Shown: positions 75 to 62,373 of the stretch, in pieces
How the letters are laid out: every line of letters starts with the position of its first letter
How positions within the stretch are numbered: position 1 is the stretch's first letter
From: Promethearchaeota archaeon
GTDB lineage: Archaea; Asgardarchaeota; Lokiarchaeia; Sigyniarchaeales; SOKP01
DNA length: 64,000 nt
Assembly (NCBI GenBank): GCA_019057795.1
Contig: JAHLWS010000070.1
Span: forward strand, 138,353 to 202,352
Direction: 5' to 3'
The notes under the pieces: model-generated
What the model saw: only the letters and a program-made list of their open reading frames with translations
Told to the model about the DNA's origin: nothing
The model's database searches: none
Position numbers and translations under genes: made by a program

Positions 75-566
75 ATGGAAAACAAACTATTCTTTGCTTT
101 AAGAAAAGTAAAGGCTATTTCTGATTACCAATTTGGACAAACAGTAACAAATATTCTATTTGAAAATGATAATAATATCCATATTGAATTTTCTAAAAAG
201 ACGGATAAAATAAAGCATATATATTACGATGAGAAACTTTTGCTAAATTTGAGACCAACTAATGGATTCTTTACATTAAGTTTATTTGCAGCTAATAAAA
301 TAATTAAAAACATTTCAACACCGAGATTGAGAGCAGTCGTGTTGAATGACATATCTGACTTTATTAAAAAAGGTCGTAACGTGTTTTGTAAACATGTTTT
401 GGATATAGACGATAATTTAAGACCCTTAGATGAGATTATTGTTGTTAATCAAAAGAATAACCTTTTAGCAATTGGAAAACTAGCGATCCCCATCCCTTAT
501 GTTCGAAGTTTTAAAACTGGAATCGCAATAAAAGTTCGGAAAGGAATCGATAAATCAAAATTATAA
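75..566 (+). CDS. PUA-domain RNA-binding protein (resembles the C-terminal region of archaeosine TGT, stand-alone)
   Basis: DYQFG motif, then PUA signature 'GRNVFCKHV...LRPLDEIIVVN...LLAIG...KTGIAIKVRKG'. Confidence 0.85.
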   Translation: MENKLFFALRKVKAISDYQFGQTVTNILFENDNNIHIEFSKKTDKIKHIYYDEKLLLNLRPTNGFFTLSLFAANKIIKNISTPRLRAVVLNDISDFIKKGRNVFCKHVLDIDDNLRPLDEIIVVNQKNNLLAIGKLAIPIPYVRSFKTGIAIKVRKGIDKSKL

Positions 567-616
567 GCCTTAATAAATTTTAATAATATATATAGTTAGG
601 AGTTATTGAGAAAAAA

Positions 617-1096
617 ATGGTAAAATTACCAAAAGAGATGCAAAAAAGAGAAAACAGCAAACCTAAGCGCCCTCAAGCAACAAAAAAGAGAGAAGGGCAA
701 CAAATTGCTTCAAGACAAATGCGTCGCCGAATGCAACAGCAAGGAGTTGAAATGGATCAAATTAACGCTACTCGAGTAATAATAGAAGGAGTAGAAAAGA
801 CGCTCATAATTGATCAACCAGAGGTTGTTTTATTGAAGCAAATGGGACAAGAAATCTATCAAATAATTGGTGAAGCACAAGAGTATTCTCCAGGGGATAT
901 TTTAATTGGAGAAAAGGAAGATGTTGAGACTACGGAACTTGTTGAAGAATCTGAAACAAAACCAATTATTACTGAAAATGATATAATGCTAGTAGCAGCT
1001 CAAGCAAATGTCAATAAAGAAGAGGCGAACGCAGCATTAATTGATAGTGAAGGAGATATAGCAAAAGCTATTTTATTTCTGAAAAATAGACCTTAA
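617..1096 (+). CDS. nac: Nascent polypeptide-associated complex protein (aNAC)
   Basis: 'RQMRRRMQQQG' NAC-domain start, YQIIG, C-terminal UBA-like 'DIMLVAAQANV...GDIAKAIL'. Confidence 0.92.
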   Translation: MVKLPKEMQKRENSKPKRPQATKKREGQQIASRQMRRRMQQQGVEMDQINATRVIIEGVEKTLIIDQPEVVLLKQMGQEIYQIIGEAQEYSPGDILIGEKEDVETTELVEESETKPIITENDIMLVAAQANVNKEEANAALIDSEGDIAKAILFLKNRP

Positions 1097-1181
1097 TTTA
1101 CTATCAAATAAAATTAGTAAAAAAAAAGAATTAAGAATCATAAATCATTCACTATTTTATAAACAATTTGGTAAGAATTAT

Positions 1182-1535
1182 ATGTCAAAAGTAAAGAAAA
1201 AACCTACTGGGCTACATGGAGGCTTATCCGAAGAAGAAGTAAAATTCGAAAAAATTATGCAATTTTCAGGTTGGATATTTTTAATCGCTCTAATTTTAGT
1301 AATGGGGGCGTTGATTATTTTCGATTCTGTATTAGGGTTAATTGAATTAGAATTAAATGCATCAACATTTACGTTAATTATTTTTTTCGGGACTAATTCT
1401 GCAATTAGTTTTGGATTAGCTACAAGAATTAAAAAAAATAGAGATCAAAAGAAGAAATTGTACTTTGATTGGTTAAAAGGCGAATTTCTATTTGGCATAA
1501 TTGCTATTTTTGCTGTAGCTGTTTACCAATGGTAA
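1182..1535 (+). CDS. Small membrane protein (about 3 TM), unknown function
   Basis: ATG ORF with three hydrophobic segments. Confidence 0.7.
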   Translation: MSKVKKKPTGLHGGLSEEEVKFEKIMQFSGWIFLIALILVMGALIIFDSVLGLIELELNASTFTLIIFFGTNSAISFGLATRIKKNRDQKKKLYFDWLKGEFLFGIIAIFAVAVYQW

Positions 1536-1569
1536 TCATTTTTTATTACATTTCGATTACCAACTATAT

Positions 1570-1899
1570 TTATTTATAATCTTCTCTTGCTGGACTAAAT
1601 ACATCTATAACATCCGTATCTTCCAAAATTATCGCCCCGTGTTTTTCGTTAGAATCAAAAACATAACTATCTCCTTCTTTTGCTATAAATTCTTCATTTT
1701 CAGTAATAAATTTTAATTTGCCCTTTAACACATATCCAATTTGATGTTCTTTATGTGAATGTAAGGGAATTTGTGAGCCCTTAATTAGATTAAAATGGCA
1801 TAACATCATATTCTTGTTATAGGCTAAAGTTTTTCTATATATTCCGTGTAAATTTTCTACTGAATCAACAGAATTTTTGCTTACGAGGTTTTTTCTCAT
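1570..1899 (-). CDS. Cupin-domain protein
   Basis: 'PLHSHKEHQIGYVLKG' and 'GDSY...NEKHG', ending 'DVFSPAREDY'. Confidence 0.9.
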   Translation of the reverse strand: MRKNLVSKNSVDSVENLHGIYRKTLAYNKNMMLCHFNLIKGSQIPLHSHKEHQIGYVLKGKLKFITENEEFIAKEGDSYVFDSNEKHGAIILEDTDVIDVFSPAREDYK

Positions 1900-2323
1900 C
1901 TAAATAACACTTTTAATTTGATTTCATCGATTTTTTATTTAAATATACTCATAGTCTTTAATTTTTAAATTTTATATATTCAATTGAAAATTACAAAATC
2001 AGTAAAGACGACATTAATTTATTTAAGGATAAAATAACGAGATTAAATATGGTTCTTTCGAATTTTTCTGAAAAAGTATGGTGTTTTCTGCGGTTTAGTT
2101 AACTGGTGTTTTAAATTTCAAATCAAGAGTTAATAAATTAAGTTTATATTAGAAAAAAAAATACATTTTTATATCAAAAGAGGTAAAATATAAACGATAA
2201 CAAATAATTATTAAGGGTATTGTTTCAGTTCATGGTGCCGACAAAAACATTTAGTTTTTAACCTGATAGTATACCTTTATCTCTTATTAGAATATTATAA
2301 ATTAAAATTTGTGATGGATTGCT

Positions 2324-7151: not shown

Positions 7152-8915
7152 TTACAATTTACTACCACACTTATTACAAAACGCATAATCAGAGGATAAA
7201 ATTGCCCCACATTGTTCGCAAACTAAGAGATCTTTAGATTTTGGCTCTTTTTTCTCTTCTTGAACAGTTTGGGTAGAAGTAATAGTTGTAAACTTACTAT
7301 GTTCGCTTTCAATATCCGCAACATTAGGGATTATTCTCAGTTTAGATTTTTCTTCTTCTTCAGATTTTTTGGTTGCACTAAATAGTATGAAGGGAGTACT
7401 TTGATCAATAGAATTTTCTTCAAATTTTTGAGTGAGTGTTTGAAATAGTGAACTTGCTTCAGGTGTCGTGTCTAAAGGAGGAGTGGGAGGGATTGATTTT
7501 GAAGTTTTATGTTCAATTTGTTTTTCTTTCTTTTCCTTCTTTTCTTTCTTTAATGTTTTCATATCCTCAAGTAATTTTTCTTGCTTCTCCCGAGCTTCGA
7601 GGATTTTCTTTTCTTTTTCTTGTTTCTTTTTTTCTTTAGCAAGTTTTTTCATATCTTTTTTAGATAAAATAGTTTGAGGCATATAATCGATTAGTGATTC
7701 TGAAGAGGGTTGAGTAAGTGAAGTTTGAAAAAGTGGAGTTACGCTTGTTGGTTCTGCTTTTGATTCCGGAGTAGGCTCAAATGTCATAGAAGCAGGTTGA
7801 GGTTTGGGTGGTTCCTCTCTTTTCATTACGCGAAATGGTGTCTGAGTTGAAGGAACTACTTCCGATTTTTCAGATTTAATTGTTTGAAATTCCTTGGGTG
7901 GAGTTGCCGGCACTGGAATATTTGACGAAAATGGTATTGTTTGGGGTTTATAAACTTCACTTTCAACAGTTGAGGATTCTGGAAATATTGAAGGAAGTAT
8001 TTCAGGTTCTGATTTCTCAGTTTTTTGAAGCAAAATTTCATCAGGCGTTTTAAATTCAATTTCTGTTGGTTCGGGCATTGATATTTCTGGTTCTGGTTGA
8101 GGTTCAAATGTTGGAAAAGGTTCGGGAACGGGGGGCGCCTCATATTCAACCTCTGGTTCTGATTCGAAGGATGACATTTGTTCTGTCGATTTTATAGAGG
8201 GGGGTTCTGGAACAGGTGGAGCCTCAAATTCAATTTCAGGCTCGGGTTTAAAAGATTGTATTGGCTCAGGAACGGGTGGTGCTAAATATGCGTCTGTAGG
8301 TTCAGAAGGAGTTTCGCTAGGCGGAGGTGAGGGGGCGTCTCCTGGTGTAAAGACAGTTGCATTGGCGAGAAATTGTTCAGGTACACCTTGTCCTATCATT
8401 AGACAAGCAAGAATATAAAAACAATCTCCAACTCCATCACCTGTTTTAGCTGAAGTCTCCATATAATACAAGTTAAAATCTCTTGTAAACTTACTAATTT
8501 CTTCAATTGAAACTGCTCTTTGATCAATCAAATCACTCTTATTCCCAACAAGTAATATAGGGATGTCAGTTTTGATATTAGCTCTAACTTCTTCAATCCA
8601 TTGAGGTAAATGTTCAAAACTTGCAGAATTAGTAAGATCAAAAACTAATACCGTACCTAATGAACCTCGATAATACATTGGTCTTATGGAACTAAAACGT
8701 TCTTGACCGCCTGTATCCCAAAGTTGAAGTTTACACTTAATAAGCCCTTCCGCCGTCTCTATTGCTATTGTTTTGACATGAAAATCAACACCAATCGTCA
8801 TCTTGTAATCTTCTGTAAAGAATCCCTTTGAAAATCGAAGAGTTAGAGCAGTTTTACCAACTCCACCATCTCCTACCACGATTGATTTAAAAAGATAATC
8901 ATACTCTTCAACCAT
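7152..8915 (-). CDS. Rab-like small GTPase with long Pro/Glu-rich tail, Lys/Glu-rich helix and C-terminal zinc ribbon
   Basis: GDGGVGKT, WDTGGQ, NKSD, ETSAK; RabF motifs IGVDF/KLQLW/RFSSI/YYRGS/LVFDLT; CEQC..CNKC at the end. Confidence 0.93.
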   Translation of the reverse strand: MVEEYDYLFKSIVVGDGGVGKTALTLRFSKGFFTEDYKMTIGVDFHVKTIAIETAEGLIKCKLQLWDTGGQERFSSIRPMYYRGSLGTVLVFDLTNSASFEHLPQWIEEVRANIKTDIPILLVGNKSDLIDQRAVSIEEISKFTRDFNLYYMETSAKTGDGVGDCFYILACLMIGQGVPEQFLANATVFTPGDAPSPPPSETPSEPTDAYLAPPVPEPIQSFKPEPEIEFEAPPVPEPPSIKSTEQMSSFESEPEVEYEAPPVPEPFPTFEPQPEPEISMPEPTEIEFKTPDEILLQKTEKSEPEILPSIFPESSTVESEVYKPQTIPFSSNIPVPATPPKEFQTIKSEKSEVVPSTQTPFRVMKREEPPKPQPASMTFEPTPESKAEPTSVTPLFQTSLTQPSSESLIDYMPQTILSKKDMKKLAKEKKKQEKEKKILEAREKQEKLLEDMKTLKKEKKEKKEKQIEHKTSKSIPPTPPLDTTPEASSLFQTLTQKFEENSIDQSTPFILFSATKKSEEEEKSKLRIIPNVADIESEHSKFTTITSTQTVQEEKKEPKSKDLLVCEQCGAILSSDYAFCNKCGSKL

Positions 8916-10263: not shown

Positions 10264-11208
10264 CTACATGAAAGTAGATTGTAGGATCTTACGAAATTTT
10301 TCTAATTCTATCTTGATTTCATTAATTTTACTTGTTGGAGTACTTATTCCTATATAAAATGTATTTTCTATATTACCAGAGATTATTGAATACCTTTTTA
10401 CATATTCCGTTCTATCCTCGGACAACGCTACTCTATCGTCTATTTTAACATCTTCATCTTTTAATCTCTGAAAAAATTCAAGATCTTCGTTAATTCTATT
10501 ACTAATTTTCTCTTCAAAAGCTCTTATATCCATAACATCCATGTAATGATCAGATATGATAAGTCCTGATGCGGTGTATAAAATTGCATAACTACAACTA
10601 AACTGATTAACAATTTTACTTAATCCTATATCAATTACATCTAAATTTAATAATTTATCCAAAGAATAAGAAATTGCTTTCGAAATTGACGAAATGTCGT
10701 AGTAAGATGTGTCAAAGAATTTAAATTTCATATCTTTATTTTGGGATAAAATTAAATTTTTAATCATTTCTGCTCGATCGAAAAAATCTTCACTATTTTT
10801 AAATTTTGGATCATATTTATTGAAACATATTATCACTTCGTTGGAATAATCTAAATCTCTATAAATATCTAACAAATCATGAAGATATTTTACAGATTCT
10901 TCGAATTTGATTTCATCCTGAATATCTATAAGATAATAAATATAATTTGTTTCAGTAAAATATATGGGATTACTTACGTATATTTTTCTGAATTTCTTCT
11001 GACCACCCATATCCCAAAGATTAATTCGATAGGTTTCTAGGAATTTAAAAGAACTATAATCTATTTTTATTGTAGGCTTTAGATTTTTCACCCGTTCGTA
11101 AAAGTTATATTTTTTTCTTAAAGCAATTAACGCACTACTTTTTCCGGCATTGTCTAAACCAGCGATAACTAATTTAAATTCATTTTTTTCGCGCTTATCT
11201 ATCGTCAT
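10264..11208 (-). CDS. Arf/Rag-like small GTPase with C-terminal roadblock-like domain
   Basis: GLDNAGKS (Arf-type G1), WDMGGQ, NKYD, DTS; C-terminal 'YAILYTASGLIISD' roadblock-like strands. Confidence 0.85.
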   Translation of the reverse strand: MTIDKREKNEFKLVIAGLDNAGKSSALIALRKKYNFYERVKNLKPTIKIDYSSFKFLETYRINLWDMGGQKKFRKIYVSNPIYFTETNYIYYLIDIQDEIKFEESVKYLHDLLDIYRDLDYSNEVIICFNKYDPKFKNSEDFFDRAEMIKNLILSQNKDMKFKFFDTSYYDISSISKAISYSLDKLLNLDVIDIGLSKIVNQFSCSYAILYTASGLIISDHYMDVMDIRAFEEKISNRINEDLEFFQRLKDEDVKIDDRVALSEDRTEYVKRYSIISGNIENTFYIGISTPTSKINEIKIELEKFRKILQSTFM

Positions 11209-13773: not shown

Positions 13774-14283
13774 TTAAAAGGATAGTTTTTCTATCAAAAT
13801 TTCGAAAGCTGTTTTGATGTTTTCCCCTGTCTTTGACGAGATCTTTACATAACTTATAATATTTTCATATTCTTTCTTAATTTCTGAGATAAATTCATCT
13901 ATAGAGAGGGATTCATAAGGATTAACCAAATCTTTTTTAGTTCCTATCAATAATATAGGAATATTTCCAAATTCTTTTAATGTAACTATCCATTCTTGAA
14001 CATTTTCAATTGTATTTATTCTCGTTAAATCAAAAAGAATAAAAGCTGCGAGAGAACCGTCAACAAAACCATTCAAAAATGTTTTGAATTGATCTTGTCC
14101 AGCAAAGTCCCACATTATAAAATTAAATTCAGTTCCATTAACAGCAATAATTTTTGAGTAAAAATCAACGCCTCTGGTTAATCTACGATTAGCTTCAAAA
14201 CTATCATGAACAAGCCGATTTAGAAATGAGGTTTTTCCTACTCCGCCATCACCGGAAACAATGATTTTTATCGTTTTCTTCAT
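13774..14283 (-). CDS. Rab-like small GTPase (minimal G domain)
   Basis: GDGGVGKT, TRGVDF, WDFAGQ, divergent G4 TKKD, ISSK. Confidence 0.9.
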   Translation of the reverse strand: MKKTIKIIVSGDGGVGKTSFLNRLVHDSFEANRRLTRGVDFYSKIIAVNGTEFNFIMWDFAGQDQFKTFLNGFVDGSLAAFILFDLTRINTIENVQEWIVTLKEFGNIPILLIGTKKDLVNPYESLSIDEFISEIKKEYENIISYVKISSKTGENIKTAFEILIEKLSF

Positions 14284-22270: not shown

Positions 22271-22284
22271 TCCTCTTTCGAATG

Positions 22285-25610
<3,326 letters not shown>

Positions 25611-25624
25611 GCGTCTACTTAAGG

Positions 25625-49093: not shown

Positions 49094-49702
49094 ATGACAA
49101 CTGATCCAGCAACCGTTATTTATAATTTATTGCAAAAAGATCCCAGTATTATTGCTGCTGCTGTAGTTCAAGGAAGAGATAACATTCTTCACTCAACAGA
49201 TAACTGGGACATTAGCCCTGATATTGCTAAAGTTAGTTCAAGTTGGAACAGCTTAAACGCTCAGTTTATCATGATTTCTGGTGTAAAATATTCTGTGCTT
49301 CAATGTACATCAGAAAGGATAGTAGCTACTTCAATGCGGGGCGAAGGACATATAATTGGAGCAAAAGATGGAGAACACAAAGTAATAATATACCTTGAAC
49401 CAGATGGTGAACCTATGGGAGCAACGATGGACACATCAAGAGCAGTTTCAGAGTTAAGTGCAAAACAAGCTTATGTGGGTGCTGATACTCAATTTAGTGG
49501 AAACGGTGTAACCCCTGCACCTGTTGCAGGAAAAAGTATAGACCCTCAATTAAAAGGGGAAATTCAGTCTTTCTTAGAATGGATTAAAGATGGCGAGGGG
49601 CTTTCAGGATATATTAATTATTATCTTCAACAAAATAACGCCCATATCATATCTGAACTTTCAAAAATCTATAGCGAGTTAAGGCAAATATTTGGAGTGT
49701 AA
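49094..49702 (+). CDS. Asgard profilin-domain protein with a C-terminal helical extension
   Basis: 'STDNWDI', 'ISGVKYSVLQCTSERIVATSMRGEGHII' match the Loki profilin pattern; about 70 extra C-terminal residues. Confidence 0.85.
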   Translation: MTTDPATVIYNLLQKDPSIIAAAVVQGRDNILHSTDNWDISPDIAKVSSSWNSLNAQFIMISGVKYSVLQCTSERIVATSMRGEGHIIGAKDGEHKVIIYLEPDGEPMGATMDTSRAVSELSAKQAYVGADTQFSGNGVTPAPVAGKSIDPQLKGEIQSFLEWIKDGEGLSGYINYYLQQNNAHIISELSKIYSELRQIFGV

Positions 49703-61848: not shown

Positions 61849-62373
61849 ATGATGAGTTCATGGATTTTTAAAGTGATCGTAGCAGGAGAGGGTGGTGTGG
61901 GAAAAACTGCTATGGTGACTAGATATTGCACAGGAAAATTTGAAGAAGGCTATAAGATGACTATAGGTGCGGGATTCCACACAAAGTCAGAAGTCCTTGA
62001 CACAGGAGAGTCCGTAAAAATGCAATTATGGGACTTCGCAGGAGAAAAACGCTTCCGAGAGCTTTTACCAGACTATTGTAGGGGGGCTAGTGGAGCACTG
62101 ATTTGCTTTGATATAACGGATTACGACACTTTCAGAGAAATTCCAGGTTGGCTAAAAATTATTCGCAAAAAAGCAGGTTTTGTACCTATAATTCTTATGG
62201 GTATGAAGTGGGATTTATCGAACCACGAAGTTGATTTCGAAATCGCGAATGAATACGCCCAAAATGCTAAATGCAATCAATGCGTTTTCACTTCTTCAAA
62301 AGAAAATATAAATGTAAACGAATCGTTTCAAGCCATGGCAAAGTGGCTTATATTTTATGCTAATCAAGCGTAG
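61849..62373 (+). CDS. Rab-like small GTPase with divergent G3/G4
   Basis: GEGGVGKT, 'YKMTIGAGF', WDFAGE, MKWD, TSSK. Confidence 0.9.
   Translation: MMSSWIFKVIVAGEGGVGKTAMVTRYCTGKFEEGYKMTIGAGFHTKSEVLDTGESVKMQLWDFAGEKRFRELLPDYCRGASGALICFDITDYDTFREIPGWLKIIRKKAGFVPIILMGMKWDLSNHEVDFEIANEYAQNAKCNQCVFTSSKENINVNESFQAMAKWLIFYANQA

Follow-up and report, generated by a model that had tools for sequence, protein, structure and literature searches.

This analysis concerns a gene in a 64,000-nucleotide stretch of contig JAHLWS010000070.1 (C70; positions 138,353 to 202,352 of the forward strand) of a Promethearchaeota archaeon, hereafter referred to as the window. The window has a G+C content of ~30%, and the genome from which it comes is assembled into 87 contigs totalling 4.95 Mb, with a completeness score of 100%. 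An open reading frame (ORF) on the minus strand codes for a protein of 587 amino acids, in which a Ras/Rab-type G domain is followed by a tail of ~390 residues that carries a series of short conserved motifs, a Lys/Glu-rich helix and a predicted zinc ribbon at the very C-terminus, where eukaryotic Rabs bear a prenylation signal. The reading frame itself, the three peptide repeats of the tail, the helix and the terminal cysteine pattern (CEQC..CNKC) of the original prediction, made from the letters alone, were all confirmed, the repeats at the positions given there. The features of the gene and of its closest neighbour are listed in the table.

Features of the Rab-like gene and of the adjacent double-zinc-ribbon gene (nucleotide positions are those of the window; AF2, AlphaFold2; pLDDT, predicted local distance difference test)
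Feature	Residues	Window position (nt)	Strand	Evidence and remarks
Whole gene, 587-aa Rab-like GTPase with long tail		7152-8915	-	ORF list, translation; stop codon 7152-7154
Ras/Rab-type G domain, G1-G5 and RabF1-5-like motifs	1-174	8394-8915	-	Pfam, PDB, AF2/Foldseek
Conserved post-alpha5 segment GQGVPEQFLANATVFTPG	175-192	8340-8393	-	70-ortholog alignment, AF2
Three [YF]xAPPVPEP repeats	210-218, 230-238, 258-266	8118-8288	-	Alignments
EIEFKTPDEIL	285-295	8031-8063	-	F288, P291, I294 invariant in 70 sequences
YKPxTIPFSSNxPxPAPxPKEF	322-343	7887-7952	-	Alignment; Y322, P324, P328, F329, P336, P340, F343 invariant in 70 sequences; kept in genera g4, g5, g8
PFRVxKREEPxKPxPASMTFEP	360-381	7773-7838	-	Conserved block, mean identity 0.80
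SLxDYMPQTI	407-417	7665-7697	-	L408, D410, P413 invariant; present in divergent genera
Lys/Glu-rich helix (predicted)	419-467	7515-7661	-	AF2, pLDDT 83-88; conserved hydrophobic positions L448, M452
SLFQTLTQK	489-497	7425-7451	-	L490, F491, Q492, L494 invariant in 70 sequences
SKLRIIPNVADIE	524-536	7308-7346	-	LRIIPN invariant in 70 sequences; motif seen in g4, g5, g8
Four-Cys zinc ribbon (predicted) DLLVCEQCGAILSSDYAFCNKCGSKL	562-587	7155-7232	-	Alignment, Pfam, AF2
Double-zinc-ribbon neighbour, 290 aa		6253-7125	+	Pfam DZR; convergent, 26 bp between stop codons

Two homolog searches returned only Asgard proteins among the best 120 matches listed, and the full-length orthologs among these, mostly 546-604 amino acids long and 55-92% identical, cover the whole query; orthologs among the matches listed are confined to Asgard-labelled records and genomes of the same phylum. 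In addition, metatranscriptome libraries from three studies contain contigs that run through the boundary between the G domain and the tail, one of them covering nt 7672-8887, boundary included, with ~97% identity. This cover fits a single expressed product, with carried-over DNA as a possible source of such contigs. The gene is genuine and conserved among Asgard archaea of the Loki type.

The protein begins with MVEEYDYLFK and matches the Pfam family Ras over residues 10-170 (E 8e-53). The complete set of elements by which small GTPases of the Ras superfamily are recognised (G1, switch I Thr, G3 DxxGQ, G4 NKxD and G5) is present in the form of GDGGVGKT, T40, WDTGGQE with an intact Q71, NKSD and SAK. 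Recognisable versions of all five RabF motifs can be read as well (IGVDF, KLQLW, RFSSIR, YYRGS and LVFDLT); the consensus of Pereira-Leal and Seabra from 2000 is reportedly IGVDF, KLQIW, RFrsiT, YYRGA and LVYDIT. The G motifs and the RabF-like motifs are invariant or nearly so in an alignment of 70 orthologs, in which the commonest residue has a mean frequency of 0.92 over residues 1-195. The EYDYLFK start, the five RabF motifs and the switch II glutamine, on which the original prediction had based its view of the G domain, are therefore all borne out by the sequence. RabF motifs have already been applied to archaeal Rab-like proteins (Surkont and Pereira-Leal 2016, PMC4915359), and the described Asgard RasL and archaeal Rab-like proteins share with the 587-residue protein the same type of G domain, the RabF-like motifs and the lack of a terminal prenylatable cysteine.

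When the PDB was searched with residues 1-190, the best 60 matches were all eukaryotic Rabs with the exception of the archaeal Thorarchaeota Rab 7EZB (phmmer E 1.5e-40; Tran 2024, PMC10933270). Rab30, Rab8A and Rab1 led the matches with E ~1e-44 and 156 bits. In agreement with this, an AlphaFold2 (AF2) model of residues 1-200, built from a more diverse alignment than that of the close orthologs (mean predicted local distance difference test, pLDDT, 89.8), retrieved only eukaryotic Rabs among its best 50 Foldseek matches, at TM-scores of ~0.85-0.89 (normalised by target length) and 40-44% identity. The term "highly eukaryote-like", as applied to this protein in the original prediction, is upheld by these matches and should nevertheless be qualified. 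The source genome encodes ~90 small GTPases, a number similar to that reported for other Loki genomes, and when three of these paralogs were compared with the PDB, Rabs came first as well, at 131, 143 and 108 bits against 156. The 587-residue protein is hence the most Rab-like of those tested and no lone exception. The best paralog from the same genome scores 141 bits against the query of residues 1-190, which is below human Rab30 or Rab8A. Two further Ras/Rab-like GTPases are encoded in the window itself, at 13774-14283 (-; 169 aa) and 61849-62373 (+; 174 aa).

The phylogeny was inconclusive in an earlier study, and a published tree shows no Asgard sequences as the specific sister group of eukaryotic Rabs (bioRxiv 10.1101/2024.02.28.582541). 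Because of this tree and of the nearly equal paralogs, the protein is filed here, by its sequence, as an Asgard RasL / Rab-like GTPase and not as a Rab proper; the name RasL comes from Klinger 2016, as cited in the same preprint. A quick tree of Asgard sequences set the clade of the protein apart from its same-genome paralogs with an SH-aLRT (Shimodaira-Hasegawa-like approximate likelihood ratio test) value of 93. The description "slow-evolving", considered at one stage, was dropped, since terminal branches of the quick tree are not readable as rates and the paralogs have no close relatives there.

The G domain is followed by the segment GQGVPEQFLANATVFTPG, in which G177, V178, P179, P191 and G192 are invariant or nearly so and which also forms the C-terminal end of short paralogs of 196 residues. 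As this segment is almost unchanged among orthologs and is modelled with high confidence (pLDDT 93-94 over residues 171-190), the folded unit appears to reach approximately residue 192. What comes after it has a different character. The mean frequency that is 0.92 over residues 1-195 is only 0.63 in the tail, and conservation is concentrated in about ten islands that hold invariant aromatic, proline and leucine residues. In the full-length AF2 model, which was computed from the 70 close orthologs and used for the tail only (its G domain was poor, with pLDDT of 33-43 at the N-terminus), the tail stays below a pLDDT of 50 except for a short predicted helix at residues 291-300, by the EIEFKTPDEIL island, the Lys/Glu-rich helix and the zinc ribbon. 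Conservation of the tail among relatives had been set beforehand as the point on which the idea of a functional tail could fail, and the islands persist in the 70 orthologs. Short conserved islands within predicted disorder fit the scaffold of multivalent short linear motifs that had been proposed for this tail.

We consider it fairly probable, though far from certain, that the protein combines a GTP switch with a flexible and multivalent docking arm, the far end of which is fixed by the zinc ribbon. The G domain would work as in a Rab, GTP and GDP changing the switch regions and Q71 being available for hydrolysis. The disordered tail would serve as the arm, and a separate partner could be bound by each of its elements: the acidic Pro/Glu block with the three APPVPEP units, the further short linear motifs, the basic helix and the zinc ribbon at the terminus. 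This ribbon, perhaps together with the basic helix, would attach the arm's distal end to a receptor or some other site and in this way replace the prenylation and the hypervariable region of eukaryotic Rabs.

The absence of a prenylation signal, already pointed out in the original prediction, was confirmed. The protein has no CC, CXC, CCXX or CaaX ending; its terminus reads CNKCGSKL, so that GSKL follows the last cysteine at position -5, and the terminal cysteines belong to the predicted CxxC..CxxC zinc ribbon. GDP dissociation inhibitor (GDI; PF00996) has zero matches in the source genome, complete by its score, and the alpha repeats of prenyltransferases (PF01239, PPTA) gave sub-threshold matches only, the beta subunit not being among the models searched there. 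Eukaryotic Rabs such as Rab8A, Rab30, Rab1 and Ypt1 resemble the protein in their EYDYLFK-type N-terminus and in having a non-globular C-terminal region after the G domain. The tail of the archaeal protein, however, is about ten times longer than theirs, it ends in a predicted zinc ribbon rather than in CC, CXC or CaaX, and it occurs in a genome in which no GDI was found. Archaeal Rab-like proteins, as described in the literature, differ from it in another respect: their C-termini are short and devoid of polybasic regions and membrane signals, and they remained diffuse on expression in human cells (PMC4915359, PMC10933270), whereas the present protein possesses a conserved motif tail of ~390 residues with a basic helix and a predicted zinc ribbon. 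Some GTPases of strain MK-D1 with domains of unknown function are marked "?" by Tran 2024 (PMC10933270), where a tail of ~390 residues is not described; nor was any description of this tail found in the published literature.

The most conspicuous elements of the tail are the [YF]xAPPVPEP repeats, which lie in the acidic Pro/Glu-rich block and are kept in two to three copies in orthologs. No DNA-level tandem repeats underlie the APPVPEP units, which suggests that the peptide repeat has been kept and does not stem from a recent duplication of DNA. The tail is present in a single copy in the source genome, and among its 10,914 ORFs the patterns APP[VIL]PE, LRIIPN and YKP..PF[ST] occur in this protein alone, so that they are no chance matches. 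A profile of the tail compared with 1.84 billion representative proteins revealed no tail-only or differently fused form; the 587-residue family and its fragments were recovered, and beyond those generic zinc ribbons only.

The form of the repeat brings to mind the machinery of the endosomal sorting complexes required for transport (ESCRT). The core APPVP fits the phi-P-x-phi-P core of the MIT-interacting motif 2 (MIM2; PMC8970359), which is found in the ESCRT-III proteins CHMP6/Vps20 and CdvB, and the repeats could accordingly be regarded as MIM2-like ligands of the MIT domain of Vps4, through which the GTPase would recruit ESCRT-III/Vps4 or be recruited to it. The source genome does encode a Vps4 with a MIT domain, at C38:83243-84460, and a Vps20/32/60-like ESCRT-III protein with MPEVP near its C-terminus, and three copies of the motif would suit an oligomeric Vps4. 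Yet only the five-residue core is shared. The extension xxP-phi-P, the second half of MIM2, is absent, the strict definition of the motif (PMC8970359) calls for a charged x where the repeat has proline, and the motif is located in the tail of a GTPase, not at the C-terminus of an ESCRT-III protein. Besides, it is missing from the orthologs of the sister family, and so short a motif can match by chance. This link to ESCRT is consequently considered very unlikely.

The distribution of charge along the tail is that of a blocky polyampholyte, with a net charge of -25 over residues 196-320 and of +9 over residues 407-470. Together with the repetition of motifs, these blocks might allow the tail to fold back onto the G domain as an autoinhibitor or to cluster the protein into condensates. 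Such self-regulation or self-assembly seems distinctly improbable, given that in the full-length AF2 model the tail is not confidently docked against the (itself poorly modelled) G domain, and that invariant aromatic and proline positions point to specific recognition, not to charge alone.

The Lys/Glu-rich helix deserves separate consideration, since, with the zinc ribbon, it could form a lipid-free membrane anchor that binds anionic archaeal lipids, the remaining tail serving chiefly as a spacer through which the G domain could explore the vicinity of the membrane. All orthologs examined retain a polybasic stretch, with a position that varies: in genus g4 and in genus g11 of the sister family (f2) it immediately precedes the zinc ribbon, and its charge reaches up to +19 per 30 residues in g8. 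The hydrophobic residues L448 and M452 of the helix are conserved, and a membrane anchor of this kind would suit a protein that lacks a prenylation signal in a genome lacking a detectable GDI. On the other hand, the helix is nearly as rich in glutamate as in lysine and carries only +9 per 64 residues, which makes it more like a soluble single helix, and about eight other invariant motifs of the tail would be left unexplained. Anchoring in the membrane by these means is accordingly regarded as unlikely.

The predicted zinc ribbon has the pattern CxxCG-x10-CxKCG, with C566, C569, C580 and C583 invariant, and forms the most C-terminal island of the alignment (DLLxCxQCGxxLSSDYAxCNKCG). Ribbons of the Zn_Ribbon_1 type have two CxxC knuckles, separated by ~10 residues, which make up two short hairpins. 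Short strands are modelled over it by AF2 with a pLDDT of 73-77. The SKLRIIPNVADIE island lies within the C-terminal ~100-120 residues, the portion in which the tail profile continues to find matches in genus g4 and the sister family. Zinc ribbons combined with polybasic segments are a common nucleic-acid-binding pairing, and the ribbon with the Lys-rich stretch might thus tether the switch to RNA or DNA, coupling it to ribosomes or to the chromosome. The neighbouring genes, which code for NrdD, MazG, a decarboxylase, PanB and a Rag-like GTPase, give no such hint, and binding would be counteracted by the acidic half of the tail, so a nucleic-acid tether is considered extremely unlikely.

The distribution of the family was followed in 300 sampled genomes of the phylum, including 68 of the source family (f1) and seven of the sister family. 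The tail profile was detected in 59 of the 68 f1 genomes, in two of the seven f2 genomes (the last ~120 residues only) and almost nowhere else. The G domain, at E <= 1e-55, is more widespread: it was found in 63/68 f1 genomes, mostly in ORFs of 541-665 amino acids (446-484 in genus g4), and in all seven f2 genomes, in ORFs of 475-648 amino acids with 52-64% identity. The same threshold was passed by one f3 genome (323 aa) and by short forms of 183-219 amino acids in three other families, identity in families outside the order being at most 53-60%. Some genomes of the source genus harbour a second, tail-less paralog of ~196 amino acids with 74-80% identity, which is missing from the source genome; an example is ORF 206-796 (-) of locus L038 (G104:C14:7000-8000), which ends in ...PGQITL and is ~80% identical. 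NCBI labels of proteins of 185-240 amino acids with 74-81% identity name Hodarchaeota or Heimdallarchaeota, which may be misleading; they are no proof of a presence in those lineages, as the same short form occurs as a second copy in genomes of the source genus.

Within the source family, divergent genera retain variants of the tail motifs, such as FSAPPVPEP in two copies, DFSAPDVPEP in three copies, and LRIIPNAE. The three f2 orthologs that were read follow the same plan of a G domain, a long low-complexity tail and a zinc ribbon, with different motifs. In one of them (L035; G213:C1:811900-814200, ORF 122-1939 (+)), encoded by a complete single-contig genome of 4.36 Mb, the xPF motif occurs 12 times in the tail, where shuffling would lead one to expect 2.4; five of the 12 are NPF, and the zinc ribbon comes last. 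The NPF tripeptide is a ligand of eukaryotic EH domains, and the eukaryotic endocytic adaptors epsin, Eps15 and AP180 likewise carry motif arrays in long disordered regions with repeated Pro/Phe motifs. This likeness is a functional analogy and implies no homology; the 587-residue protein itself has no NPF, and its PF dipeptides are not enriched (four observed versus 2.6 expected). In the f3 ortholog and in a group of proteins of ~296-302 amino acids, one member of which is labelled Helarchaeota, the G domain is accompanied by a helical domain and a zinc ribbon, and related Rab-like GTPases likewise carry the ribbon at their C-terminus even though their linkers are very different. What stays constant is thus the Rab-like G domain together with a zinc ribbon at the terminus, the linker representing a lineage-specific array of motifs. 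Two same-genome Rab-like paralogs, at C60:15732-16352 (-; 206 aa) and C31:7923-8375 (-; 150 aa), also end in a CxxC..CxxC ribbon, which there follows a short linker, and so represent the architecture in a short version.

Several observations weigh against the interpretation of the protein as a switch on a docking arm held by its ribbon. The analysis yielded no binding partner. The predicted disorder derives from AF2 with a shallow alignment of close relatives, in a run that modelled the G domain poorly. The Pfam match of the ribbon (PF13240, Zn_Ribbon_1, residues 566-587) scores 22.5 bits, below the cut-off of 25 bits. Ribbons of the same pattern end 39 ORFs and begin 35 ORFs of the source genome, so this type is generic in the genome and need not be an anchor specific to Rab-like proteins. 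Finally, the motifs of the tail differ between families, and its function may therefore not be uniform.

The gene that converges on the Rab-like gene encodes a protein with a zinc ribbon at either end. According to an alignment of 18 orthologs, its N-terminal ribbon is followed by a conserved central domain (residues ~55-145), a variable Pro/Lys linker and the C-terminal ribbon, which is preceded by DLK in a manner that resembles the DLL before the ribbon of the GTPase. An Atlas feature search with the central domain yielded unnamed clusters only. The zinc-ribbon gene is present in 59 of the 68 f1 genomes, the genomes without it largely coincide with those without the tail, and the two genes stand side by side wherever the positions of both are listed for an f1 genome. 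At three orthologous loci the order NrdD, MazG, pyridoxal phosphate (PLP)-dependent decarboxylase, double-zinc-ribbon gene and convergent Rab-like gene is shared. The far side of the Rab-like gene is occupied by PanB, a Gtr1/RagA-like GTPase, a class IV aminotransferase and a small Ras-like GTPase; the locus that is most distant lacks PanB and the Rag-like gene and yet retains the zinc-ribbon gene next to the Rab-like one. When the whole protein was modelled in complex with this neighbour, GTP and Mg, a score of 0.29 was obtained, compared with a mark of 0.32, which speaks neither in favour of binding nor against it. The association between the two genes is one of position only, within a syntenic family.

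The Gtr1/RagA-like GTPase (window 10264-11208, minus strand, 314 aa; Pfam Gtr1_RagA, E 1e-20) bears a C-terminal extension; it is located two genes from the Rab-like gene, and this synteny is kept at two of the three loci. Elsewhere in the window, a solitary archaeal 23S rRNA gene is situated at 22281-25614 (-); neither a 16S nor a 5S gene was detected beside it, as no other Rfam family reaches its gathering score within the window. An ORF of 202 amino acids at 49094-49702 (+) gave a sub-threshold match to profilin (E 2e-4, 23.3 bits), the sole match to that model in the genome.

In an extended scheme, the tail would be a lipid-free device for targeting and assembly: the ribbon, of a type also present in the neighbouring protein, would dock the GTPase and its neighbour at one site, and APPVPEP and the other motifs would recruit membrane-remodelling machinery, for example Vps4/ESCRT-III. 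We regard this scheme as quite unlikely. If it held, the family would represent an archaeal counterpart of the membrane recruitment of Rabs and of effector scaffolding, made of short linear motifs, that predates prenylation.

The family described here is a clear exception among Asgard Rab-like proteins, which in the literature are said to lack a tail. It offers a testable handle on how Rab-like switches are positioned without a lipid anchor: some ten defined peptides of the tail, as well as its single zinc module, could serve directly as baits, and tests of localisation and interaction are feasible, since cultured Loki-type strains exist. Should the multivalent docking arm prove true, it would mean that a short-linear-motif network of eukaryotic style surrounds a Rab-like switch in archaea.

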